Virus record (IMG/VR): IMGVR_UViG_3300020435_000116
Span: 62,001-123,978 of that record
Direction: 5' to 3' (one strand)
From: an uncultured virus (IMG/VR IMGVR_UViG_3300020435_000116)
Taxonomy: Duplodnaviria > Heunggongvirae > Uroviricota > Caudoviricetes
Length of the DNA: 61,978 nucleotides
Made by a program: the position numbers and the translations under genes. Below the pieces are notes generated by a model. It was not told the DNA's origin and made no database searches. It saw only the letters and a list, made by a program, of their open reading frames with translations. Below are positions 2,843-59,774 of the stretch, one piece after another. The stretch's first letter is position 1; the number at the start of each line of letters is the position of its first letter.

Positions 2843-3673
2843 TTAGATAAAGCTAGCAAGTACTGCTTGAGATATTTCATGGTAACGTTCACACTCTAGT
2901 AAATCAGGATGTTTAAACATACCTTTAGATTTACAGTGTCTGATCATCCTATCTTGCTTCTCACCGTAGTAGCCATTAAGCGCCGCACCTAGACGCAGGT
3001 AGTCTACGTAGTCTATACGTTTCTTAGATTCATCCGTTTCACGACGTCGCCAATGTTCAACCGCATAAATAACAGGTTGTTCAAATTCCCATTGCTTTAA
3101 GATCTGACCACCTAGGATAGGGGAAAGTCGATTGGCAGTTTCATTAAGAAACGCATCGGTAGCATACTCGGATGGGTTAGTCTCCGCCTCGTTAAGTATA
3201 GCTAGCATGCCGATGTTGTGGGCTAGGCAAGCAAGGAATAATGTTTCTTCTCTTATATGCTTTTGTTTAGCGCAGACCTCCAACGCCCCCATGGCGCATG
3301 AGGTCATAGTAACGGTATCCATCCATACTTCATGCATTTTAATTTGGATTTGTTTGTTCTTAGAATCAAACAACTGTTCCATCGCCATACCTATAGCTAG
3401 GTTTTTAAGCTTAACCAAGCCAATACGCTTACAGGCTTCGTGAATATCATTAATTGTTGACACACCACGCACTAATACAGTATTGGAGTAGCGTAGGATG
3501 CGGGTAGTAAGTGCAGCATCCGTTGCAACGACTTGACTAACATCAGTAATTGTTGAGTCTTCTAACTCAGCAGTTTGTTTTACACGTAGTGCGATATCAG
3601 GAAGTGTTGGTAGTGTTAGCGCATTGCTATTAATCTTATCCAGAATAGATAAAGTTAATGCGTTATGTTTCAT
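2843..3673 (-). CDS. HDOD-domain protein (stand-alone)
   Basis: LPTLPDIALRV, DAALTTRILRYSN, ACKRIGL, LAHNIG and ILKQWEF motifs typical of HDOD. Confidence 0.9.
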   Translation of the reverse strand: MKHNALTLSILDKINSNALTLPTLPDIALRVKQTAELEDSTITDVSQVVATDAALTTRILRYSNTVLVRGVSTINDIHEACKRIGLVKLKNLAIGMAMEQLFDSKNKQIQIKMHEVWMDTVTMTSCAMGALEVCAKQKHIREETLFLACLAHNIGMLAILNEAETNPSEYATDAFLNETANRLSPILGGQILKQWEFEQPVIYAVEHWRRRETDESKKRIDYVDYLRLGAALNGYYGEKQDRMIRHCKSKGMFKHPDLLECERYHEISQAVLASFI

Positions 3674-4938: not shown

Positions 4939-5632
4939 TGCTTATCAACGTATCGCGAAGTCTAACAATGCCATCAAGGCATTTATTTAACGGTTCGGCG
5001 GGGAAATGGATTTCCTGGCCCTTATCACCGACGTCTAGCAATTCCTTAGCTGTTGCGGCGTGGTCAGTATAGAGATCTAACATGGCCTCCATGGCATCTA
5101 GCTTATCTTCTATGGTATTAGTCTCTTCGAGTAATTTACCAAGATGACTACCGTATTGATTTAAGTTAACAATCCAATACACTATCCCAGTTCTTACATC
5201 CCTTTCTCTATCCATCGCTAAATAGCTAAAAGCTGCTTGGCCACGATAAAGTTCGTGGATATCACGATTACGCTTCTCATCGATGTTAATGGTAATGTCA
5301 AAATGATTACGTCGAGCAGGTTTAAGACCTACTTTGTCAAACACATCCATGATAACATCTATAATACGCATGTAGGTATTATAGAAAGCATTAAAACGTC
5401 GAAAAGTCACGTAGTGGAGCTTGTTGGTAACATAAGACTTGACAGCCTTATCTACCTCCCCATACGCCCGTTTAGTGGGGTGGGGATCCTCGGCGGCATC
5501 ATTGAAGCACTGATCGCGTTGACTTGTTAGAATATCACGAATAGCGCCTGCCAATACCTTCTTTTCTTCAAGTCTCTCAATCAAAACATCAATGTTAGCA
5601 CGAGTAAAGCTGATGGTAAGTAATCGTCTCAT
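4925..5632 (-). CDS. Hypothetical protein
   Basis: 235-aa ORF with RBS AGGA, overlapping the start of the HDOD-like gene. Confidence 0.75.
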   Translation of the reverse strand: MRRLLTISFTRANIDVLIERLEEKKVLAGAIRDILTSQRDQCFNDAAEDPHPTKRAYGEVDKAVKSYVTNKLHYVTFRRFNAFYNTYMRIIDVIMDVFDKVGLKPARRNHFDITINIDEKRNRDIHELYRGQAAFSYLAMDRERDVRTGIVYWIVNLNQYGSHLGKLLEETNTIEDKLDAMEAMLDLYTDHAATAKELLDVGDKGQEIHFPAEPLNKCLDGIVRLRDTLISSEDR

Positions 5633-6284: not shown

Positions 6285-6932
6285 TCATGCATGATTATTT
6301 TCATAATAACGCAGTGCTTCTGCGCATTGCATTTTATTAGGGATCATAAAACTAGCGCTTAACGTCCCACCTTTCCAACTACCCACACCGACGCCTACTT
6401 CCTCGGCAAAATCAATTTCTGCGCGGTAAATCTTCCACGATAGAAAAGGGATCCAGCGAAATCCGATAGGGGCAACCTTAATATAGTAGACCCGCACATT
6501 GGCATCCACGCTATTAAGGTTAGGTCGGTCATGGTAATGTAGACCAACGGTCTCAGCAAGCGTATGTTCCTTATAAGGCTCAACAGCACTTACCCGCCAT
6601 GGTAGATCTACTAACTTAGAACCCCGTCCTCCTAGATAGAAGTGTAGCGATTCGCTTCTAATAAAAACACCGTACCAAAAACTTTCTTGATCTGAATTAA
6701 GGGTTTCTGTACAGGCCCAATTACCTAAATGAATAGTAATACATAGCCAGTAAAGGGAAAGCGTAATGTCATTTCTTCCCTCATCCCAACTGATCATTTG
6801 TTTGGTGGTACGCGTTAATAGAAAATGTAGCGAACGATCAAACTTAGGTATTGCCCATCGTATCTCCATCGCCCCTATTCTTAAACGGGCGGCGGTTAGG
6901 CATTTAGGAAGTAAACGTTTTTTAGTTAGCAT
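6285..6932 (-). CDS. Hypothetical protein
   Basis: 215-aa ORF with RBS AAGGA. Confidence 0.75.
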   Translation of the reverse strand: MLTKKRLLPKCLTAARLRIGAMEIRWAIPKFDRSLHFLLTRTTKQMISWDEGRNDITLSLYWLCITIHLGNWACTETLNSDQESFWYGVFIRSESLHFYLGGRGSKLVDLPWRVSAVEPYKEHTLAETVGLHYHDRPNLNSVDANVRVYYIKVAPIGFRWIPFLSWKIYRAEIDFAEEVGVGVGSWKGGTLSASFMIPNKMQCAEALRYYENNHA

Positions 6933-9364: not shown

Positions 9365-9982
9365 TTATAGCTTACTGCCGGTAATACCTGTCTGACCCTG
9401 GTACTTGCCCCCTCTATCACCGTAAGTGACGTTTGGGCGGACCTTAGATGCTTTAAACTCTATCTGCGCAATACCCACCCCTGCGTATATACGCATGGGT
9501 AGATTAGTACAGTTAGTGATCTCCACCACTAAGTTACCTTCCCAACCTGGCTCCAGCGGTGTTACCAGACTAAACATGCCAATACGTGCCCATGTGCTCT
9601 TATTAGAACATGTACCCATGACGTTATTTGGAATAGAGAAGTATTCTACTGTACGAGATAGCAACAACCCACCTGGAGGCAGGATAACACTGTCGGCCTT
9701 CACTTCTTCAACAAACTCACGCTCATCAAAGTTCATGATATCGATAATGCGACCATCGTTAGGTTTACTAAAGAGTTTAAACTCAGGGGCAAGACGGACA
9801 TCATACCCAAAGCTACTAAGGCCATAACTAGGAATACGTTGATCGTTGTCGTTAACTTTCACCGACGTATTAATGAATGGCTCAATCATAGGACGCTTTT
9901 TATTATTGACAATCGTTCCATCAATTTCGATAGAACAATCACCCGTACAAAGTGACTCTATAGCGTAATCTGGTATCAACAT
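9365..9982 (-). CDS. dcd: dCTP deaminase
   Basis: SYGLSSFGYDVRL, KSTWARIG, TPLEPGWEG and GKYQGQ motifs. Confidence 0.95.
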   Translation of the reverse strand: MLIPDYAIESLCTGDCSIEIDGTIVNNKKRPMIEPFINTSVKVNDNDQRIPSYGLSSFGYDVRLAPEFKLFSKPNDGRIIDIMNFDEREFVEEVKADSVILPPGGLLLSRTVEYFSIPNNVMGTCSNKSTWARIGMFSLVTPLEPGWEGNLVVEITNCTNLPMRIYAGVGIAQIEFKASKVRPNVTYGDRGGKYQGQTGITGSKL

Positions 9983-9987
9983 AACAA

Positions 9988-10194
9988 CTAACTTAATCCT
10001 GGTTGTAAATTAAAGAAATCATCTGTGGCTATAATGACCACATGATTGTTTTCAATGAAGTAACTGGTAAATAGCGCATCCTCAAATAAACTCAAGGCAT
10101 CTTTAGCAACGCCAAGTTTAGTTATCTGATTGCCATCTGCACTTTTTGCAATTACGTTTTTATCGCCATGGGTCTGTATGATCTCTTCAATCAT
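9988..10194 (-). CDS. Small hypothetical protein
   Basis: 68-aa ORF with RBS AAGGA between thyA and dcd. Confidence 0.7.
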   Translation of the reverse strand: MIEEIIQTHGDKNVIAKSADGNQITKLGVAKDALSLFEDALFTSYFIENNHVVIIATDDFFNLQPGLS

Positions 10195-10203
10195 GTAAGT
10201 TCC

Positions 10204-11082
10204 TTATGCTGACATTTTACCTGAAATAGGTGGGTGTGACTGATAACCTATTACCTCAAAGTCTTCATCGGTCATATGGTTAACCACATAGTCCCAATCC
10301 GTGATACGGTCACTTAACTTTATTGTAGGCATCTCATAGGGATCACGACTCAACTGTTCCGTCACCTGTTCAAAATGGTTTTCGTAGATGTGGAAGTTAT
10401 TATGGTCATGTTTAACCCAACCCGGCTTATGACCTGTTATCTTAGCCATTACCGCTAAGAAAACATAACACTGCATCATATTCCAATTCACACCTAAAAA
10501 CGCATCAGAGCTACGCTGAGTCGACGTCATGTGAAGTGTGTCGCCTAACAGTGTAAAGGTGTGGCTATACATACATGGTCTTAGCGCACCTAATTCAAAA
10601 AGACCTGGATTCCAAAACGTAACGATCTCGCCGCGATCATCTACTCCTGCTTTAAGGTTAGTGTAGACCTTTTTAAATAGATCCATGGTGTGGCCGTCAT
10701 GCGTTGGCCAGCGTTTAGCTACGCCTCCGTAAACCAAACCAATGTCATCCGTACCTTTACGATGAGGGTTATCTAACCATGCACGTGTTTCATTAGCGTT
10801 GATATCCCAGCTATCAGTACCTAGGTCTCTAAACTGCGCTGCGCTGCTAAACCCACGGAAGTAGCCGCAGAGTTCTCTAATCGCCTTACGCCAATAGCTT
10901 TTACGTGTAGTGGTAAGAGGAAATTCACCCCCTCCTACATTGTAATACATCACCGCACCTGTAACTGTGCGGCAGACCATCCCAGTACGATCATTGCGAA
11001 TGTCGTGACCGTGCTCCATGGTTGTACGTAAAAGGTCAAGATACTGTACTTCAGCTGACGGTAAGTTCTTTGGTAAGATCAT
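10204..11082 (-). CDS. thyA: Thymidylate synthase
   Basis: DRTG, FPLTTTRK, catalytic LRPC, QRSSD and HIYENH motifs. Confidence 0.95.
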   Translation of the reverse strand: MILPKNLPSAEVQYLDLLRTTMEHGHDIRNDRTGMVCRTVTGAVMYYNVGGGEFPLTTTRKSYWRKAIRELCGYFRGFSSAAQFRDLGTDSWDINANETRAWLDNPHRKGTDDIGLVYGGVAKRWPTHDGHTMDLFKKVYTNLKAGVDDRGEIVTFWNPGLFELGALRPCMYSHTFTLLGDTLHMTSTQRSSDAFLGVNWNMMQCYVFLAVMAKITGHKPGWVKHDHNNFHIYENHFEQVTEQLSRDPYEMPTIKLSDRITDWDYVVNHMTDEDFEVIGYQSHPPISGKMSA

Positions 11083-11084
11083 GG

Positions 11085-11564
11085 TTATTCCTCTATATCT
11101 CTAAAGTAATCACGCAGCTCCATGAGCATACGTCCTAAATGGTTGCTACCTTCCCCGGTGCGCATACACACGCCCCAGTATTTATCACCATGCCAATTCC
11201 CTTCGACTAGTTCTCGGTCACCAGTAGCAAGTAGCTTTTCTTTTAAATGGGGATTAAAGGTGAATTTTGCATATAACACATCCCACATACATGCTTGTCT
11301 GATATCATCCCAATTGTCTACGATGTCGATAGATCGTCCATAGCGCTTAACTTCACCGGGTTTATATAGACTTGCAATATATCTGCGAATCTCTTCATTA
11401 TCAGTCTTACAGGCTACGTAAGCGTGTTCAGAGGTCGCAAAGTAAAACAGGGGATGTGAGCGTGTTTTAAATATAGCGTTCTCAGGAAGCGGGGTTTCTA
11501 ATATGTAAAAGTTACTTAAGAACGAATATTCGCCCCTAAACATCGTTATAGCTTCAGCGCCCAT
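11085..11564 (-). CDS. NADAR-family (YbiA-like) hydrolase
   Basis: FLSNFY, SEHAYVACK, AKF..NP.L...LLATG..ELVEGN, D.YWG and G.N.LG.MLM motifs; start at 11564 behind AAGGAG. Confidence 0.92.
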   Translation of the reverse strand: MGAEAITMFRGEYSFLSNFYILETPLPENAIFKTRSHPLFYFATSEHAYVACKTDNEEIRRYIASLYKPGEVKRYGRSIDIVDNWDDIRQACMWDVLYAKFTFNPHLKEKLLATGDRELVEGNWHGDKYWGVCMRTGEGSNHLGRMLMELRDYFRDIEE

Positions 11565-11616
11565 AGTCACTCTCCTTAGTATTATAAGATCCCTAAGGGC
11601 TGTTAAATACAACATT

Positions 11617-11650
11617 GACGGCAAAAAAAGAAGGGCGTTAACCCTTCTTA
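11617..11650 (-). terminator. Intrinsic terminator with TGCCGT tail
   Basis: AAGAAGGG/CCCTTCTT stem then TTTTTGCCGTC. Confidence 0.75.
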
Positions 11651-11651
11651 T

Positions 11652-11945
11652 TTATTCAAAGTCTACTTTAGGTAGAGGTCGCATCCATTCTAATAAATGC
11701 TTGTCTATCTCAAACTTATCGTTAATTCTACCACGATTAGTGTCATCCTCGTAGCGAATAACTTTAACATGGCGTTTAGTTTGATACGCTTTGACCAGTG
11801 CGGGATTAAAGACGTTGGTGTTCCATTCCTGGTACGTCATGCTGGTATCTTTTAGGATACGCATGTCGGCGATAACTGGTGTGCATTTTTTATAGTACTC
11901 GTACGCCACCCACAATAATGCCACTAATAAAAGAAGTTTAAACAT
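11652..11945 (-). CDS. Small membrane-anchored hypothetical protein
   Basis: N-terminal hydrophobic helix MFKLLLLVALLWVAY. Confidence 0.75.
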   Translation of the reverse strand: MFKLLLLVALLWVAYEYYKKCTPVIADMRILKDTSMTYQEWNTNVFNPALVKAYQTKRHVKVIRYEDDTNRGRINDKFEIDKHLLEWMRPLPKVDFE

Positions 11946-12147
11946 TAGAACATTCCTCGTTACTATTAAAGGGTAAAGGCACTTCTACTTTTCGTGTTGC
12001 TTCAAGTTCATATTTGAAACTAAAGCCTTTGATTGACAATTTGGTTTGGTAGTCATATTCGCCTGTCTCTATGGCGTCTGCTAGACTACGAAGACGTGCT
12101 GCCACATCTTTGGCCTTGTCTTCTATGTTAAATGTTGAATCAGACAT
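11938..12147 (-). CDS. Small hypothetical protein
   Basis: 69-aa ORF with RBS AGGA. Confidence 0.7.
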   Translation of the reverse strand: MSDSTFNIEDKAKDVAARLRSLADAIETGEYDYQTKLSIKGFSFKYELEATRKVEVPLPFNSNEECSNV

Positions 12148-12155
12148 AAGGTTTC

Positions 12156-12668
12156 CTATTGTAACAAGCTAACTAAATTAGCCAAAATGTGATTAAGTGT
12201 TCGGCCGTCGTTGTCTTGTTTAATCCAAGCAGCCATATCTTTTAAACTATCAAATACAGGGGACTTTGGTGTACCTAATGTAGTAGTATCATAGAGACAA
12301 TACGATGTAGCTTCAAAGGCAGTGTAACCTTGAGTTGCATGCGTTGGATCAATTAAACCGTCTTCACAGGGTATAAAGGGAGCACCCATCCAATATAGCA
12401 GCCCGTCGATAGTAGCAAACCCTTCTTTTGCTCGACTCTTATATAGCATAATTTTATAATTGTGCTTTTCTACTAACAAACCATCGAATAAAGGAATATA
12501 GTTTCCTTCATTATCTTTTGGATGTTTCCAATCTGGCGGTACACGTCGTACTTCAACTTGGCTAGTTTTTCGTGGTACTATACCCTGACCCTTGGTCTCA
12601 GGTTTAAGATAGTGTGGCTTCTTACAGTCACCCGTATCAAAATCTATAAACGGTGTTAGTTTATTCAT
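12156..12668 (-). CDS. Conserved phage hypothetical protein
   Basis: VRRVPPDWKHP and YDTTTLGTPKSPVF motifs. Confidence 0.75.
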   Translation of the reverse strand: MNKLTPFIDFDTGDCKKPHYLKPETKGQGIVPRKTSQVEVRRVPPDWKHPKDNEGNYIPLFDGLLVEKHNYKIMLYKSRAKEGFATIDGLLYWMGAPFIPCEDGLIDPTHATQGYTAFEATSYCLYDTTTLGTPKSPVFDSLKDMAAWIKQDNDGRTLNHILANLVSLLQ

Positions 12669-12691
12669 AAACCATTTCTCTATTTAAATTC

Positions 12692-12722
12692 AGGCATAAG
12701 GGGAGGGCCGAAGCCCTCCCTA
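12692..12722 (-). terminator. Hairpin terminator with TTATGCC tail
   Basis: GGGAGGGC-TTCG-GCCCTCCC (UUCG loop on the minus strand). Confidence 0.85.
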
Positions 12723-12723
12723 A

Positions 12724-13497
12724 TTATTCACATTCACCTACGTAGTGGTTACCACTACCTTGTTTTTCACAGATACGCTGATTACGTAAACGCTCATCAT
12801 CACTCACGGGGTCTTTTAAATCCCAATAATAGAGATGCATGAGTTCTTTATCGCTTATTACAATATCAAGTGGTAATGAGTAGGCATCTAACATATACAG
12901 AAAGATGCGGGCTACATCCCCACGCATAACGTCACGCACCTCTACATATTCTTGGTTGACTTCAACATCACAACTACCAAAGTCACGCCCCTCACCATGT
13001 ATATTTGAAAACAACTTGTCTGAACGTAGGTTATTAAGCTCGCCAATGGCGGGCACTAGATTCACTAAGTCGTTTTGCGCCCGCTCGTAGATCATGTTAG
13101 TTTTCTCGCAACACGCTCTAGATGATAACAAATCCCCATCCGACTCATAACACGCAGGAATATCTTTACGTGTATCACCCCAACACATTAACCCACCACC
13201 TAACATAACCGCAGGCATGGCATGTTCAGCTTCAATGCGGTTAGCGCGCGTGCCGTTTATATTAACAGGCTGATAGTCACAGTCTGAATAATCCACACTT
13301 TTATTATCTTTAAAAGCACACCCACAATAAAACGTCTGGTTCAATGGGGGTTTGTGGATGTCCTCTACCATCCATTTTACACTGGTAGGGAATGACTTAG
13401 GAATGTCCGCTGCATAACCGGTACTTGCAGACATGATAATACCAATAGCAACGGTAGCTAGTAGTATGGTGAATAGTCCTACTGATTTTTGTTTCAT
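12724..13497 (-). CDS. endA: Secreted endonuclease I (EndA/Dns/Vvn family)
   Basis: TFYCGC, IEAEHAMPA, DLVNLVPAIGELNNLRSD, RGDVARIFLYM, DPVS and QGSGN motifs; signal peptide MKQKSVGLFTILLATVAIGIIMSASTGYA from ATG 13497. Confidence 0.9.
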   Translation of the reverse strand: MKQKSVGLFTILLATVAIGIIMSASTGYAADIPKSFPTSVKWMVEDIHKPPLNQTFYCGCAFKDNKSVDYSDCDYQPVNINGTRANRIEAEHAMPAVMLGGGLMCWGDTRKDIPACYESDGDLLSSRACCEKTNMIYERAQNDLVNLVPAIGELNNLRSDKLFSNIHGEGRDFGSCDVEVNQEYVEVRDVMRGDVARIFLYMLDAYSLPLDIVISDKELMHLYYWDLKDPVSDDERLRNQRICEKQGSGNHYVGECE

Positions 13498-14111
13498 TTT
13501 ATTATATCCTTTAAAAGGGGTGAGCGTTTTAATAATTCTTGATATAGCACAGCAAACTTCGTTGCACGTTCCGCACAAGCCTTTAGTAAAGCGGACGATG
13601 GCTTACCTGTACAGACGTGTCGTTCGAGTATGAGGATGTTACCCAGTATTAATATATGGCGCAAATACCAATCTAATACCCTATCCTGCAGCATCACGTT
13701 GAAGTTAATAACTGACTTCCTATTCCTAGCAAAGATACCACGACCTATTTTAACGGTAGGAATGCTATCTGGTAACATTACAATTTCATTAACAAGATCT
13801 TGATATATGGCATTTTGCATAGCCGTGTATGGCAGGTGTTTAACTACAGCCATAGTTACACGCGCGGCAGGTTCACTTAGACCCAACGCGTTGATCTCAG
13901 CAGTATTAAAAACGTGTGTTAGTGTAACCGATGAGGTGTTGCGGAATTGGAAGTTTTCTAGTTGTCTGAGCGATGCTTCGTAAACGTTGTTGAATCCCTG
14001 GATGAAATTACTTGCTCGTCTGTCCAAAGACGGATCAAGAAACTGCTTTAAAAACATCCGGGCTTTGTTGGCTTCCTGCCTTACAGTTATTAAATTGGCA
14101 TTGTTGCTCAT
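13494..14111 (-). CDS. Hypothetical protein
   Basis: 205-aa ORF with RBS AAGGA. Confidence 0.75.
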   Translation of the reverse strand: MSNNANLITVRQEANKARMFLKQFLDPSLDRRASNFIQGFNNVYEASLRQLENFQFRNTSSVTLTHVFNTAEINALGLSEPAARVTMAVVKHLPYTAMQNAIYQDLVNEIVMLPDSIPTVKIGRGIFARNRKSVINFNVMLQDRVLDWYLRHILILGNILILERHVCTGKPSSALLKACAERATKFAVLYQELLKRSPLLKDIIK

Positions 14112-15239: not shown

Positions 15240-15791
15240 TTAAGTCTTGCTTGGTTTTTTAGTAAATGTAAAATCCGCGTTTTCTGACCACGCCTTCATG
15301 CCTTTATACGGACTGGTAGGCTGGTTAAAGATACCTTGATTGCTGTCAGTAGTATTATCGAGCTTATTTATAATCACAGAGCATTTAGTTTCATCAAGAA
15401 CTAGAGTTAATGACGTTATGTATGGCATTAACGTTAACAACCAGAGACCTGACGTAGAATGAACAGACACCAGACAATGTCCATTAACTACGACCGCGCA
15501 ATGTATTCGCCTGAATACTGCGCTAAGATTAGATGTAAAAACCATCTTCCCGTTTGCATAATCAATCTCGTCATGGTCTACAAGTAATGATTCAATAAAC
15601 ACAGTTTTTGTTATAGCGTTTTCTAACTCATTCGCTAGGGCGATATAGTCATCTATAGTTCTTAATGGCTCACGTATAGACATGTCTAATTCATCAAGTT
15701 CTTTACTTAGACATTCAGTTAGTTTCGGCTTAGATATAACCTCAACGATTACGCCGCGCAACTGACATAATTTTTTAATATCTTCTTTCAT
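15240..15791 (-). CDS. Hypothetical protein
   Basis: 183-aa ORF with RBS AAGG. Confidence 0.75.
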   Translation of the reverse strand: MKEDIKKLCQLRGVIVEVISKPKLTECLSKELDELDMSIREPLRTIDDYIALANELENAITKTVFIESLLVDHDEIDYANGKMVFTSNLSAVFRRIHCAVVVNGHCLVSVHSTSGLWLLTLMPYITSLTLVLDETKCSVIINKLDNTTDSNQGIFNQPTSPYKGMKAWSENADFTFTKKPSKT

Positions 15792-15816
15792 GATTTTTTA
15801 CCTTTAGTTTCCTTAA

Positions 15817-15848
15817 GGGCATAACGGGAAGACCCGAAAGTCTTCCCT
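15817..15848 (-). terminator. Hairpin terminator with TTATGCC tail
   Basis: GGGAAGAC/GTCTTCCC stem directly after the 50-aa gene. Confidence 0.8.
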
Positions 15849-15856
15849 ATAGTTCT

Positions 15857-16009
15857 TTAGATTTTACATGCACCGCCTTCACAGCCATCGACATCGCCTT
15901 CCGTTAAAGCTTTCGCTTCTTCATCTTGCTCTGCCATACGTTCTGCATTTGCACGCTCTAGTGCTGCTTCGTCGATATCAAAATCAAAATCATCAAAACC
16001 ATCACTCAT
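15857..16009 (-). CDS. 50-aa acidic peptide ending in an NrdA-like C-terminal redox motif (GCEGGACKI)
   Basis: Translated by hand: MSDGFDDFDFDIDEAALERANAERMAEQDEEAKALTEGDVDGCEGGACKI; strong RBS AAGGAG; below the ORF-track cutoff. Confidence 0.88.
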   Translation of the reverse strand: MSDGFDDFDFDIDEAALERANAERMAEQDEEAKALTEGDVDGCEGGACKI

Positions 16010-16024
16010 GATAGTCTCCTTTTA

Positions 16025-16032
16025 GTAATGTA
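16025..16032 (-). promoter_or_regulatory. Early-type promoter variant TACATTAC
   Basis: One mismatch to TATATTAC, preceded by acc as at other sites, just upstream of the RBS of the 50-aa gene. Confidence 0.55.
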
Positions 16033-16042
16033 GGTGTTTAGG

Positions 16043-17479
16043 TTAATCGGTTTTATCACGCTCTACCCAAACGGTAATAACCGCGTTTCTTAAATGACGG
16101 TGTTCGGTAGGTCCAGGTTCTATAGCGGTAGAGTCCTGGTCGATACGCTGTAATGTGCCGTAAAGTTTAGCCACGTTACCATCTAAGATGTAGAGTAGCA
16201 GTACAGGCATACCAGGATACACCTGGTCAATATCTGCATTCTCCCAACGTATTTGAACATGAGAGCCTACTTGTCTAGATAGCCTGCTGTTTTCAACAAA
16301 CGCGTTATGCGTAATGGCATCTTTACTTAACTTAAGGAAGTTAGTATGGATACGACTCTCTACCGCAGCTTGGACTTCATGGTCTTCGTCATTAATGGTG
16401 GTTACGTTAGCACTGGTAGTACTGAACACATCCATAACCTTGTCTGCATTGACGTGGTAATAGGCATTACCATCATTCATCTGACGACGCTCACTATGGT
16501 CTTTCTGCACCACATCCCCTGTAGCCAACATATAAACCTTACCGTAATGTTTAATGGGGTCGTTGACCTTATATGTCTTTTCTACCCCAGGCATTCGATT
16601 AGCAGGCAAGTTAGCTATAGTGAGAGTTTGTTCAACACTGTCATAACGACGTGTATGATAGGCGGGAAAGATAAACCATATAGTCTTTTGGAAGAAATAC
16701 CCCATCCCCGTCTTATAAACACCATAAGTTTTCTGCAGATAATTAGGCAAGTCAACCAACCGCGTACCGTGAGGTATAACGATGTGGTCATAGACACGCG
16801 TATTGTCTGGTTCTATGATGTGTGCGCCACTTACAAGGTTTTTAAGACGCCATTCAAGATAATCCTCAGAGGTTACCGTTAACGAGCTAGGGGGTGTTTC
16901 AGGACGCTGTACGTTAGCGAAGAATAGCGTAAGTATCTGCTTTACCGTGCAGTCTTTAAAGATCCCACCTACCTCTACAACACGAAACTCATCAACAATC
17001 TGCTCGATAAGTTGTAACTCTACGTTAATAACATCTGAACGATCTCCGGTCTCCTGGTCTGATGTTGCTTCGGTAGATGCCACGACTGACGGGGACTGGT
17101 CCCCTACGATGATGCATTGATAATCCCACGACTCCTCAGCGCTATCTGTTACAATTTTACCGTTAGCTGCCGTCAATACCAACTGTCGATAAAGCTTAGC
17201 GGTGAGTCCTTGTTTATTAGGATAGATGGCGTGGGCGTATGTGCCCACACCTAATACCGCTTCAACAATAAGGGATTCACTAAACTCGTTTTGAAAGTCA
17301 CGCTGTACATCAACGGCGACTACTTTAATCGCCTCGTAAGGCGTATCACCAACGTAAAGTTCTAAACGATAACGATAGTGTTTATCGGGGCGCTTGCGCT
17401 CGTCCACGTCGTCATACTGCGTGGTAATGACATCAATGACATCGTTATAAAGCGCCGTTTCATCTACTAATCCCGCCAT
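16043..17479 (-). CDS. Virion structural protein (phiKZ gp101-like, probably baseplate hub)
   Basis: PDN...YDHIVIP.GT.L..LP.YLQ..YGVY..G.G motif; synteny. Confidence 0.7.
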   Translation of the reverse strand: MAGLVDETALYNDVIDVITTQYDDVDERKRPDKHYRYRLELYVGDTPYEAIKVVAVDVQRDFQNEFSESLIVEAVLGVGTYAHAIYPNKQGLTAKLYRQLVLTAANGKIVTDSAEESWDYQCIIVGDQSPSVVASTEATSDQETGDRSDVINVELQLIEQIVDEFRVVEVGGIFKDCTVKQILTLFFANVQRPETPPSSLTVTSEDYLEWRLKNLVSGAHIIEPDNTRVYDHIVIPHGTRLVDLPNYLQKTYGVYKTGMGYFFQKTIWFIFPAYHTRRYDSVEQTLTIANLPANRMPGVEKTYKVNDPIKHYGKVYMLATGDVVQKDHSERRQMNDGNAYYHVNADKVMDVFSTTSANVTTINDEDHEVQAAVESRIHTNFLKLSKDAITHNAFVENSRLSRQVGSHVQIRWENADIDQVYPGMPVLLLYILDGNVAKLYGTLQRIDQDSTAIEPGPTEHRHLRNAVITVWVERDKTD

Positions 17480-38435: not shown

Positions 38436-38453
38436 GTAATATAGGTCTATAAA
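38436..38453 (-). promoter_or_regulatory. Early (virion RNAP) promoter
   Basis: TTTATA-gacc-TATATTAC, same architecture as 9290-9307. Confidence 0.75.
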
Positions 38454-42331: not shown

Positions 42332-42784
42332 TCATAAACATACCGTGACTTTTAAATCGACCCCTTCTACTATATCAGGATCAAAGACCTCTCTAAATAA
42401 CTCAATCACATCATGTTTATTTAAATTACCCTTACCACATCCTAATAAAGGAAAGCCGATATGTCTCACACCTAAACGTGGGAGATTATCTAGGCAGGCA
42501 TAAAGTCCCCTAGATATCCATTCTAACTTAGAGTCATTACGCCATCTGTCTTTAGTTGCAAAGCACAATACGTTTTTATATGGATGACGATAAAGCCAAC
42601 TATGACCTGGGTTGAGTTTACGCTCGCCACACAAATAGTGGTATTGATTAAACAGATCATCTGGGTATTTGAATTTAAACGCTAACGCTAATCCATTCCC
42701 CATGGTCCCGTCACAGTTCACAGGACAGACTATGGTGTCTGCTTCTAATTGAAATAAATCTGCATGTACAAATTCTAATATCAT
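42332..42784 (-). CDS. Macrodomain ADP-ribose hydrolase (DarG/Poa1p/TARG1-like)
   Basis: DLF, VNC.G.MG.GLA..FK..YP, FATK..W and FP.LGCG.G motifs. Confidence 0.9.
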   Translation of the reverse strand: MILEFVHADLFQLEADTIVCPVNCDGTMGNGLALAFKFKYPDDLFNQYHYLCGERKLNPGHSWLYRHPYKNVLCFATKDRWRNDSKLEWISRGLYACLDNLPRLGVRHIGFPLLGCGKGNLNKHDVIELFREVFDPDIVEGVDLKVTVCL

Positions 42785-51491: not shown

Positions 51492-54053
51492 TTATAGCAC
51501 ATACGCAGTTTGCAGCGTACGGTGAGTTTTAACTTTATCTGAGAAAGTAGCAAGTTTTCTTTCATGGTACTTAACATGAGAATCTATATCTTCGCAAACT
51601 AAGTAAAAGAAACGTGGTACGTTATCTTTAAAGCCTCTTAGCTTTCTCAAACGACCCAGTATCTGCGCGTTTAATTGACGTGAGCCAATTGCAGATGTCA
51701 GTAAGGTAACTTTAAGCCCTTTGATATCTACCGCAGTGCCTGCAGACTTAGGTGTAGTAATGATTACATCAGATTCATAAAGATACTCATCTGGATCCTC
51801 ACCCACAAACCTATTGACAGTTAAGTCAGTCAAACGTGGCTTTATAAACGATGTTAGATAGGTACACATCTCTATGGTATCAGCAAAGATCATCATCTTT
51901 TGCCCCGGCTCACGGATACTGATGTATTCATTAAGCACGATATCATAGATCATTTCAGCGTAAGCTTCACTACGAAACTTCTTCTTCAATATAGACGCCT
52001 CAAAGAGCATCTGAGAGTACATCTTACGTCGCTTATGCGATAGTAGCTCTACCTTGTTACAACGGTATGTGAGGGCTGTACAGGCGATATATTTGCCATC
52101 ATAATCCGGTGTTATACGTTCGCCAACAGGATAGGCAACTTCTAACATTGAATTAATGAAAGCATTATCAGAAACTAACGTCGCCGACATGTAAATCGTC
52201 TTAGCCACATGACCGTACAGATCCTGCGTAAAGTTGAGATGGAAGTTCTCATGTACTTCATCTATTACGCGTAGTCCTGTTTTAGTAACCGTGTACAATT
52301 CATCGGGGTCGCAGTTATACCCTTCTTCCTCCAGCTTTCCTTCCTCATACGCCTTGTAGAAGTTGTACATGGTAGTCGCTGATATAATGATAAAATCATA
52401 TTCCAAGGCATCTGCTAATCCTAAATCGATAAGCGTCCGCATGGCTTTAGATCCTTTCACCACACACAGTTTTTCCCTAGGTACATTTAATGTCTTAGTG
52501 ATATCACCAATCCATTTACCTTCGGTGATGTACTTAGCAGGAACAACCAAGATGGTTCTTTTCTTTATCATCCATGTGGAATATAAAGACATCATGGTGT
52601 TGTGTGTAACCACAAAATCATCAGTCACATAAAGATGATCTTTGTGTGTAACCGATATACACTGTGCTTCAGCCATTCGGGATGGTTCTACACTTACAAC
52701 CTTTAACTTCAATCCTTTAGAATACTGATTATCATCATTAGCCCTTTCGAGCTTATGTGGTACAGTAAAGAGTGAAGATGGTTTAGGATGGCGAATGTTA
52801 ACCCTGAAGCTAGGCTGTCCAGGTTTCTTTTCTCCCTTGTAGGTGTAGTAGGTTTGACGTTTAGATATTTTTGCAATACCTCCTAGACTTCTGACTAAGT
52901 ATTGAACGTCTTTGGCTAGTTGTTCAGATACGCTTGAGTAGTCCATGGATGAATTGACATCAATACCTCCATCGGTATCCATCAGACCCTGAAGTAACGC
53001 GTAACGCTGCTCTACGGAAGCTTCTAAATAAATCTTAGGGATGAATTTATCAGCGGAACGACAACCCCATAGTCCTAAGTGCTTGAAGTAATCTCTAAAC
53101 ACATGACTATTTCCAAAACCAATAGTTCGCCCGTTAGCACCACAACTTAATGTAACGTGTTCTGGTAACAGAGTTGACAGCTTATGGAAGACATCCACGT
53201 AGGTAGTGGTGAATGTGGGAGTCGTGGTAGTAAAGCAACCGTCACCCAACATAGCGCCGAGGGTCCATGGGTGAATGGGTAGTTCTTTGTACTTACCTTG
53301 TTCAGGTTGAATTAGCGGTATATACACTCTAGGTTGTGAGCGTTTAAGTTCACGCATCATTTCAAAGGTATCACCTATACGCCACCGCTTATCGACATCA
53401 TGGTAGTTAGCAATAAACATCTTCCAAAGATGCTCACCTCCAACTTCAGTTGACCGACCATCTGCAAACGTAACCTTATAAATCTGCATTTTCCCTTGAG
53501 GGAATACGCCATTTACAAAAGTGTCGTGTCCGTCAGGTGCTGTGATCTTATCTCCTACCTGTATATCTCCCATTCGTTTCCAACCACCAGGTATCTTAAT
53601 TAGACTGTCTAATGGTTGCATCTTACCACTACCCGTTGGCGCATTGGTTATCTTACTTACACCCGGTGTAAGGAAATGGTCAATAACTGGCAATTGGTAC
53701 TCGTAAGGTTGAATGTCGTCATCTATTACAAAACTAGTAACATCATCACCTTCTACCGGAGTAAAATGCTCAATTAATAATTGTTCGGTTTTGATTCCCT
53801 TTACGTTAAGGTGTGTAAGTATATCTTTATACTGGTTAATATGGAAACGCAACTCTCTACGATCATGCGGTGATGCGGCAAAGACACGCTTAGGTATCTT
53901 ATAGTAACTGTGGGTACGAGGATCGTACCCTTGGTCATAATCGATTAACCGCTCGCAATAATCATAGAGGGCGCGTTTACACTCTGGCATCATGGTGTGG
54001 AACCGTACATGGTGACTTTTTACATCCACATGTGCGTAATACTGAGTTGGCAC
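51492..54053 (-). CDS. SF2 (UvsW-like) helicase (phiKZ gp75-like) containing an intein
   Basis: Walker A APTGSGK|T split by the intein; DEVH, SAT and QILGRLR motifs; about 512 aa after splicing. Confidence 0.9.
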   Translation of the reverse strand: MPTQYYAHVDVKSHHVRFHTMMPECKRALYDYCERLIDYDQGYDPRTHSYYKIPKRVFAASPHDRRELRFHINQYKDILTHLNVKGIKTEQLLIEHFTPVEGDDVTSFVIDDDIQPYEYQLPVIDHFLTPGVSKITNAPTGSGKMQPLDSLIKIPGGWKRMGDIQVGDKITAPDGHDTFVNGVFPQGKMQIYKVTFADGRSTEVGGEHLWKMFIANYHDVDKRWRIGDTFEMMRELKRSQPRVYIPLIQPEQGKYKELPIHPWTLGAMLGDGCFTTTTPTFTTTYVDVFHKLSTLLPEHVTLSCGANGRTIGFGNSHVFRDYFKHLGLWGCRSADKFIPKIYLEASVEQRYALLQGLMDTDGGIDVNSSMDYSSVSEQLAKDVQYLVRSLGGIAKISKRQTYYTYKGEKKPGQPSFRVNIRHPKPSSLFTVPHKLERANDDNQYSKGLKLKVVSVEPSRMAEAQCISVTHKDHLYVTDDFVVTHNTMMSLYSTWMIKKRTILVVPAKYITEGKWIGDITKTLNVPREKLCVVKGSKAMRTLIDLGLADALEYDFIIISATTMYNFYKAYEEGKLEEEGYNCDPDELYTVTKTGLRVIDEVHENFHLNFTQDLYGHVAKTIYMSATLVSDNAFINSMLEVAYPVGERITPDYDGKYIACTALTYRCNKVELLSHKRRKMYSQMLFEASILKKKFRSEAYAEMIYDIVLNEYISIREPGQKMMIFADTIEMCTYLTSFIKPRLTDLTVNRFVGEDPDEYLYESDVIITTPKSAGTAVDIKGLKVTLLTSAIGSRQLNAQILGRLRKLRGFKDNVPRFFYLVCEDIDSHVKYHERKLATFSDKVKTHRTLQTAYVL
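52599..53621 (-). mobile_element. Class 3 intein with LAGLIDADG homing endonuclease (341 aa)
   Basis: MQPLDS...EHLW...LGAMLGDG...LLQGLMDTDG...AQCISV...VVTHN/T. Confidence 0.92.
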
Positions 54054-59739: not shown

Positions 59740-59747
59740 ATAATGTA
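59740..59747 (-). promoter_or_regulatory. Early-type promoter variant TACATTAT upstream of nvRNAP beta
   Basis: cacc-TACATTAT, same upstream context as 16025; nvRNAP genes are expected to be early. Confidence 0.45.
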
Positions 59748-59774
59748 GGTGTTAAGTTGTTTAGGAGAAGCTCG

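Follow-up and report, generated by a model that had tools for sequence, protein, structure and literature searches.

All de novo synthesis of DNA precursors depends on ribonucleotide reductase (RNR), for which re-reduction is a known bottleneck. According to the excerpts of two published accounts, class I RNR ends in a disordered C-terminal tail; a pair of cysteines in this tail reduces the active site and is restored in turn by thioredoxin or glutaredoxin (PMC9669993, PMC4078304). Here we describe a small viral gene whose product appears to consist of such a tail without the enzyme. The gene lies in the window, by which is meant the whole stretch of 61,978 nucleotides that was analysed; it is the second half of a 123,978-base IMG/VR record (IMGVR_UViG_3300020435_000116) belonging to a phiKZ-like jumbo phage. 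Located at 15857-16009 on the minus strand and made up of 50 codons plus a stop, the gene encodes an acidic peptide that ends like NrdA, the large subunit of class Ia RNR, and that probably acts on the host supply of DNA building blocks. Full-text literature searches, which did not extend to subscription-only papers and supplements, turned up no account of an RNR tail peptide encoded by itself in either phages or bacteria.

A first-pass annotation, made from the sequence letters, had proposed this open reading frame (ORF) together with a strong ribosome binding site and an acidic product ending in DGCEGGACKI, and all three are borne out. The Shine-Dalgarno sequence AAGGAG (16016-16021, minus strand) stands 6 nt 5' of the ATG start codon (16007-16009) and is kept in the homologue at locus L016. 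When the coding region is compared with this homologue, the nonsynonymous and synonymous differences per site (pN and pS) are 0.051 and 0.635, respectively, a ratio of 0.08 obtained with synonymous sites near saturation; against the L012 homologue, pN/pS is 0.24. The ORF at 15857-16009 is a genuine gene under purifying selection. It is present in one copy per genome in all five records searched, and its start codon, ATG in the window, is GTG in marine metagenome variants, namely in several viral contigs and in all four metatranscriptome assemblies compared. The peptide contains 17 Asp and Glu residues against 4 Lys and Arg residues, with an isoelectric point of 4.05. Its residues 3-11 (15977-16003, minus strand) form an Asp/Phe-rich motif with Phe at positions 5, 8 and 10; residues 12-40 (15890-15976, minus strand) form an Ala/Glu-rich acidic linker; and residues 41-50, DGCEGGACKI (15860-15889, minus strand), form the tail, in which Cys43 is encoded at 15881-15883 and Cys48 at 15866-15868. 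On composition, the linker is probably helical or disordered; the small, very acidic peptide as a whole is probably largely unfolded. Searches of Pfam, NCBIfam and the PDB with the single peptide gave no significant match.

The identity of the tail carries the main finding. The annotated NrdA of E. coli K-12 ends in DDGCESGACKI, as had been stated in the first-pass annotation, compared with DGCEGGACKI in the peptide, and many gammaproteobacterial NrdA proteins have exactly the peptide's ending. When bacterial genomes, one per species, were scanned for CEGGACKI followed directly by a stop codon, at least 120 loci were obtained; among the 120 matches listed, 105 are NrdA ends and 15 are short frames, one of the latter being an NrdA end with a frame change. 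A family profile built from 20 peptides was compared with all PDB chains and gave 15 matches, every one of them the C-terminus of an RNR large subunit. Fourteen of these are class Ia proteins (best E = 1.5e-4) and one is class II (E = 1.5), and the matches include 1qfn_B, the NrdA 25-mer that was solved with glutaredoxin. All 27 profile hits have the C-x4-C pair two residues before the C-terminus, with variation at the other tail positions, and both cysteines are kept in 37 of 37 aligned family members, whose consensus is C-x-(G/S)-G-A-C-K-(I/L). The tail identity and the restriction of the PDB matches to the ends of RNR large subunits agree with the proposal that the phage encodes the NrdA tail alone; judged by its sequence, the peptide reproduces the redox tail of class Ia NrdA in free-standing form. 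Strict matching of the residue after the first Cys to the host was considered and rejected, since Erwinia amylovora phages have both Ser and Gly variants and since Gly occupies this position in a Klebsiella phage peptide but Ser does so in E. coli NrdA.

The peptide belongs to a dispersed family. IMG/VR was scanned for DNA able to encode C-E-x-G-A-C-K-I, a design that requires the cysteines, and 69 loci were obtained: 6 are internal chance occurrences, 22 are the C-termini of NrdA-like ORFs, and 41 are the ends of non-RNR ORFs with an immediate stop, of which 34 encode small products (39-86 aa) and 7 encode longer ones (123-360 aa). An unbiased search, in which the 20-peptide profile was run against 1.84 billion protein cluster representatives (E <= 0.001), returned 27 hits, namely 26 free-standing small proteins of 44-76 aa and one 259-aa fusion. 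Isolate members are encoded by Erwinia Alexandravirus phages, Dickeya phage AD1, Klebsiella Siatvirus phages and Vibrio phage 275E43-1, and RefSeq lists them as hypothetical; the range of the family extends from marine jumbo phages and the Erwinia, Dickeya and Klebsiella jumbo phages to 40-50 kb phages and Neisseria chromosomes. A word-indexed search for longer relatives yielded 94 candidates, none at E <= 10; the tail is too short for that tool.

Fused forms of the peptide are found at L022:1736-2527, L029:2498-3580, L066:2135-2527, L051:2156-2527 and L014:2498-2689 and in P0034. Their N-terminal parts include an N4 gp49-like domain, a zinc ribbon and several sequences without any family. A common origin of the larger fused proteins was rejected, as their tails alone align. 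Because the acidic motif and the Cys tail occur together on unrelated N-terminal domains, they can be regarded as a portable module. This leads to a different reading, in which the peptide is a thioredoxin or glutaredoxin decoy or adaptor, that is, a mimic of their substrate through which reducing power would be diverted or recruited without contact with NrdA; the fused forms would tether thioredoxin or glutaredoxin to another phage protein. The presence of the module on at least five unrelated N-terminal domains suggests a portable handle, and the tail equals the segment solved in the glutaredoxin complex mentioned above; however, neither the NrdB-like motif, with its match to marine NrdB ends, nor the either/or pattern with phage RNR (both described below) is explained in this way, and a decoy or adaptor seems quite unlikely.

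At its other end, the peptide resembles the second flexible tail of class Ia RNR, namely the C-terminal segment by which NrdB binds the alpha subunit. Most family members have an acidic stretch with spaced Phe and Leu residues near the start, for which the alignment consensus is F-x-L-D. A matrix was made from 11 NrdB ends adjoining NrdA genes with this tail, and 45 distinct peptides, their tails removed, were scored against their own shuffles. In this test, 14 of the 45 peptides gave p < 0.05 and 8 gave p < 0.01; the value for the window peptide is 0.047, and that for its clade mates L016 and L012 is 0.0005. NrdB ends taken from a blind sample of 61 genomes belong to another RNR subclass and were excluded. 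NrdB ends were also read side by side from 23 named gammaproteobacteria whose NrdA ends like the peptide, and among these the Phe-rich ends are those of the marine members. Residues 3-9 of the L016 peptide are identical at 7 of 7 positions to the last seven residues of Litoribrevibacter NrdB (L254); the L012 peptide matches the NrdB end of an Alteromonadaceae metagenome-assembled genome (L248) at 6 of 7 positions; and the window motif differs from those marine NrdB ends by one extra residue and by a final Phe for Leu. The nrdB product of E. coli K-12 ends in the known acidic-aromatic tail. The suggestion in the first-pass annotation that the aromatic-acidic N-terminus is like an NrdB tail therefore holds, the closest resemblance being to marine gammaproteobacterial NrdB. 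In a separate observation, the NrdB end at viral locus L045 is nearly the same as the N-terminal motif of the window peptide. Because co-crystals of NrdA with a 20-residue NrdB tail exist (17 PDB entries, including 1r1r_D), the docking site that would be mimicked is well defined. Taken together, the peptide appears to be a chimera of both flexible class Ia RNR tails, with an NrdA-like end and an NrdB-like start. An engineered fusion of RNR alpha with the beta tail (PDB 8vhu, chain A) is a man-made counterpart to the presence of both tails in one chain.

The NrdB-like start also lends itself to the opposite reading, in which the peptide is a brake on host RNR that would fill the NrdB-tail groove and/or the active-site entrance and lower the synthesis of deoxynucleoside diphosphates (dNDPs) by the host. 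Such a motif implies that the peptide and NrdB compete for the groove visible in the co-crystals, and the bacterial copies described below lie in stress- or nutrient-regulated operons (isc, cysIJ), which would fit a regulated brake. A precedent is Sml1, which is described in an excerpt of one article as a 104-residue, loosely folded inhibitor that binds RNR (PMC6199570). What speaks against a brake is the distribution of RNR genes among the phages.

None of the 21 records that carry the peptide (this record and 20 others; CheckV puts the completeness of 11 at 90% or more, and one is an isolate with a complete genome) contains NrdA (PF02867). The NrdB (PF00268), thioredoxin and glutaredoxin families gave no match in five carrier records, and no NrdA, NrdB, thioredoxin or glutaredoxin was found in the record of the window or in a near-identical 190,650-base record, which has terminal repeats and encodes an identical peptide. 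Each of 18 viral records that encode an NrdA with this tail gave a single match to the family profile, located at the NrdA end, and the free peptide occurs in none of the 18. Since there is phylogenetic clustering in both sets, the 21 carriers and the 18 with NrdA, and since many of these records are fragments, this either/or pattern is suggestive and not a statistic. Among the viral NrdA ORFs, those at L045:2498-3901 (467 aa) and L007:734-2527 (597 aa) look N-terminally cut or rearranged. As no RNR family was found in the phage records, the target cannot be the phage's own RNR, which the first-pass annotation had named beside the host enzyme; a tail-less phage nrdA, also raised there, was likewise not found in the record. 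A split phage nrdA, in which the tail would be encoded apart from a tail-less NrdA, was rejected for lack of PF02867 in this record and the 20 other carriers. With regard to the brake, a 190-kb phage from the RNR-less carriers needs host dNDP synthesis, so that inhibition would seem self-defeating, and the phages that bring their own RNR, for which shutdown of the host enzyme costs nothing, are the ones without the peptide. Owing to this either/or pattern, a supportive role is favoured, and a brake on host RNR is considered unlikely.

Because the phage is without RNR, thioredoxin and glutaredoxin of its own, the peptide is proposed to act on host NrdA. Its NrdB-like start would dock on host NrdA in the groove used by the NrdB tail, and its Cys tail would join, in trans, the electron relay that runs from thioredoxin or glutaredoxin to the active site, whose disulfide is re-reduced in NrdA by the two cysteines of its own tail. 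The peptide would thus serve as a second or spare redox tail, or as a replacement for damaged tails, and the deoxynucleotide output of the host would be kept up or raised during infection. In the excerpt of a study on mouse RNR, the activity was up to 3-fold higher when one reductant acted on the active site and one on the tail, and recharging was argued to require that the oxidised tail leave the active site (PMC4078304). A free tail with an NrdB-like handle could act as such a second reductant, an arrangement well suited to phages for which the host enzyme is the sole RNR. We infer NrdA binding, redox cycling and the positive sign of the effect, and a tentative probability of about 0.42 is assigned to the reading that the peptide is a trans-acting redox tail on host NrdA that sustains or raises the supply of deoxynucleoside triphosphates (dNTPs).

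Several points weigh against this proposal, in addition to the clustering of the records noted above. An NrdB-tail look-alike that sits in the NrdB groove should compete with NrdB, giving inhibition and not help, and since the motif is internal or N-terminal, it is without the free C-terminal carboxylate of a true NrdB tail. The NrdB-like motif is not significant in 31 of the 45 peptides, including the Erwinia-phage type, and is not evident in Vibrio phage 275E43-1. The module of motif and tail is also the C-terminus of unrelated larger phage proteins, and the isc and cysIJ contexts of the bacterial copies could point to a thiol, sulfur or iron-sulfur (Fe-S) role instead. Finally, the evidence from RNA is weak, since long contigs in RNA libraries may be DNA carry-over. 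The gene stretch is present in 6 RNA-library runs of 3 studies, and contigs span the whole of it in the 4 runs compared (three have a single contig each, of 9.3, 9.2 and 3.0 kb, and the remaining run has two that overlap, of 1.3 and 1.7 kb), but metatranscriptome contigs cannot show transcription when such carry-over is possible, and the RNA libraries were not counted as evidence.

Another finding is that free-standing copies of the tail occur in bacteria. Among the CEGGACKI-stop matches listed, 11 of the short frames are a 42-aa Neisseria peptide that combines the NrdA-like tail with an acidic Leu/Phe motif and whose cluster comprises 210 members and occurs on at least 1000 contigs. The Neisseria NrdA end has the same tail but for one residue. 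At L235 (an N. meningitidis contig, approximately 5060-5191) and L028:2399-2524, the gene lies directly 5' of iscU in the order IscR, IscS, peptide, IscU, HscB, and the start of IscU follows the peptide in all five further loci whose flanks were read. A Neisseria-type peptide with an IscU start is also present on a 778-base contig of a Terrabacter assembly (L086), which is likely contamination. In Thalassolituus maritimus, a tail-bearing small ORF (L233:4760-4999) stands directly after the sulfite reductase genes cysI-cysJ. The copies in Moraxella (L234) and in another Neisseria (L232) are flanked by unrelated genes.

Because of the isc and cysIJ contexts, a thiol or Fe-S role is kept open. 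The peptide would then be a thiol, sulfur or Fe-S micro-protein with a target other than RNR, such as an acceptor of persulfide or a ligand of a metal or cluster, and its likeness to NrdA would reflect a shared chemical need. The position of the Neisseria gene between IscS and IscU and that of the Thalassolituus gene after CysI-CysJ are consistent with this role; on the other hand, a shared chemistry does not by itself account for a run of 8-11 residues identical to NrdA ends, the phage neighbours are nucleotide and replication genes and not genes of sulfur or Fe-S metabolism, and two other bacterial copies have unrelated neighbours, so that a role apart from RNR appears improbable. The enzyme that follows CysIJ in the sulfur pathway depends on thioredoxin or glutaredoxin, and in this respect the Thalassolituus copy also speaks for the decoy or adaptor considered above. 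The names given to the Neisseria cluster are all hypothetical, except for one automatic label, 'FxLD family lantipeptide', which UniRef attaches to a Neisseria lisongii member. This label and the F-x-L-D in the family consensus could indicate the precursor of a ribosomally synthesized and post-translationally modified peptide, with an acidic leader, a Phe-x-Leu-Asp-like box and a Cys-bearing core. None of 13 peptides, however, reaches the NCBIfam lanthipeptide cut-off, the sole lanthipeptide row being a weak one (ALQxL class IV domain, E = 0.16, 12.3 bits against a cut-off of 19); neither the 145 neighbouring proteins of 18 loci nor the window genes yielded a modification enzyme; and Ser and Thr are missing from the core in most members. 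A precursor of this kind is highly improbable.

If the bacterial copies are included in the proposed trans redox tail, a wider reading results, which we regard as doubtful. RNR-less phages and bacteria would share a new class of trans-acting RNR cofactor peptide, which would dock on NrdA through its NrdB look-alike, shuttle electrons from thioredoxin or glutaredoxin, and sustain or raise dNDP production when no new host enzyme can be made; in Neisseria, its place in the isc operon would link RNR activity with the sulfur and Fe-S state of the cell.

The signals that flank the gene agree only in part with the first-pass annotation, which had placed an early-type promoter before the gene and a terminator after it. 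A consensus scan of 15500-16500 gave no sigma-70-like promoter on the minus strand, which is the coding strand, and the promoter claim is not sustained. The gap between the peptide gene and the upstream 478-aa gene is 33 nt. A 13-mer, AACACCTACATTA (16026-16038, minus strand), is a candidate phage-specific promoter or regulatory element; a second exact copy in the window (59741-59753, minus strand) also stands directly 5' of a gene, and the 13-mer is kept 5' of the L016 homologue despite the saturation of synonymous sites in the coding region. It may be a promoter specific to the phage lineage. Weaker copies of the 13-mer lie near 38437 and 57006 of the window. At the other side of the gene, 10 nt 3' of the stop codon, a GC-rich 9-bp hairpin (15826-15847, minus strand; folding energy -16.5 kcal/mol, z = -2.1) is kept in the diverged L016 and L012, with compensatory changes at 5 of 11 pairs in a comparison of three sequences. 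The terminator claim stands as far as this conserved hairpin after the stop is concerned, but the coding strand has no U-run after the hairpin, and the terminator consensus scan called it on the plus strand only. The hairpin could be a terminator or an RNA-stability element.

Internal head proteins and head-tail joining and tail tube proteins are encoded in the record of this phiKZ-like phage. A structural protein is at most 33% identical to those of isolates, and the window stretch was found in marine metagenomes from 10 studies. The nucleotide-metabolism genes downstream of the peptide gene on the same strand (9365-13578, minus strand) are Endonuclease I (12724-13578), NADAR (11085-11624), ThyA (10204-11082) and a dCTP-deaminase-like gene (9365-9982), in agreement with the minus-strand island of EndA, NADAR, ThyA and Dcd that had been described before. 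The peptide gene of the relative L012 has Endonuclease I on one side and ThyA on the other. In unrelated phages, the adjoining genes encode dCMP deaminase, dCTP deaminase, ThyA or ThyX and Endonuclease I, as well as a dATP/dGTP diphosphohydrolase domain, DNA polymerase A, a primase-helicase and a 5'-3' exonuclease. This linkage to nucleotide-metabolism genes, here and in unrelated phages, speaks for the proposed action on host NrdA.

Other genes of the window were observed apart from this context. A 215-aa protein (6285-6932, minus strand) matches, over its C-terminal 57 residues, the family of Acb3 (PF25187, E = 1.3e-13), an inhibitor of the cyclic oligonucleotide-based antiphage signalling system (CBASS). 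An HDOD-domain protein (2843-3673, minus strand), a Macro-domain protein (42332-42784, minus strand) and the NADAR protein are also encoded, and a signalling or ADP-ribose-related counter-defence function is possible for these three genes. An 853-aa ORF (51492-54053, minus strand) has an internal LAGLIDADG domain and no other family match; an intein or homing endonuclease may here have been inserted into a large protein.

If the proposed support of host NrdA is true, it would represent a widespread and so far undescribed way in which viruses steer the host dNTP supply without carrying RNR, and it would help to explain the many large phages that have no RNR. It would also provide RNR biochemistry with natural bivalent peptides that probe both the groove and the active site of NrdA, and it would raise the question of peptide-level control of RNR in bacteria. 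Synthetic 40-55-mers are testable on the well-studied E. coli enzyme.

Compared with known systems, the peptide shares with the class Ia NrdA redox tail the terminal sequence, the C-x4-C spacing two residues from the end and the acidic flanks. Unlike that tail, it is not joined to the RNR catalytic barrel (PF02867) but is encoded by a separate 50-codon gene in a genome without RNR, and it has an additional N-terminal motif. With the alpha-binding tail of NrdB (1r1r, chain D), it shares an acidic stretch with spaced aromatic and aliphatic residues, and for some marine NrdB proteins the likeness within the family is exact or near-exact over 7 residues; unlike the NrdB tail, however, the motif stands at the N-terminus of the peptide and not on a ferritin-like subunit, and it is weak or absent in part of the family. 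Four PHROG families, phrog_14561, phrog_24014, phrog_38753 and phrog_20277, have profiles that end in the same tail, and all are of unknown function. The relative L067 matches phrog_24014 at E = 1e-44, whereas the window peptide matches phrog_14561 weakly (E = 0.3) and over residues 41-50 only.

Two systems from outside this family are also comparable. Sml1 competes with the large subunit's own C-terminal tail. As the peptide would be, yeast RNR regulators of the Sml1 type are small, acidic or loosely folded, and directed at the large subunit, according to an excerpt of one article (PMC6199570). Sml1 nevertheless inhibits the enzyme of its own organism, whereas the peptide gene is viral; no sequence relationship between the two was seen, although no search aimed at it was made. 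GrcA (YfiD) is a stand-alone gene for the C-terminal piece of pyruvate formate-lyase, a radical enzyme, and its product can act in trans. The concept of a stand-alone C-terminal working piece that acts in trans as a spare part would thus be common to GrcA and the peptide, although GrcA serves another enzyme, has no similarity to the peptide in sequence, for which no aimed search was made, and is a folded glycyl-radical domain, not a flexible tail.

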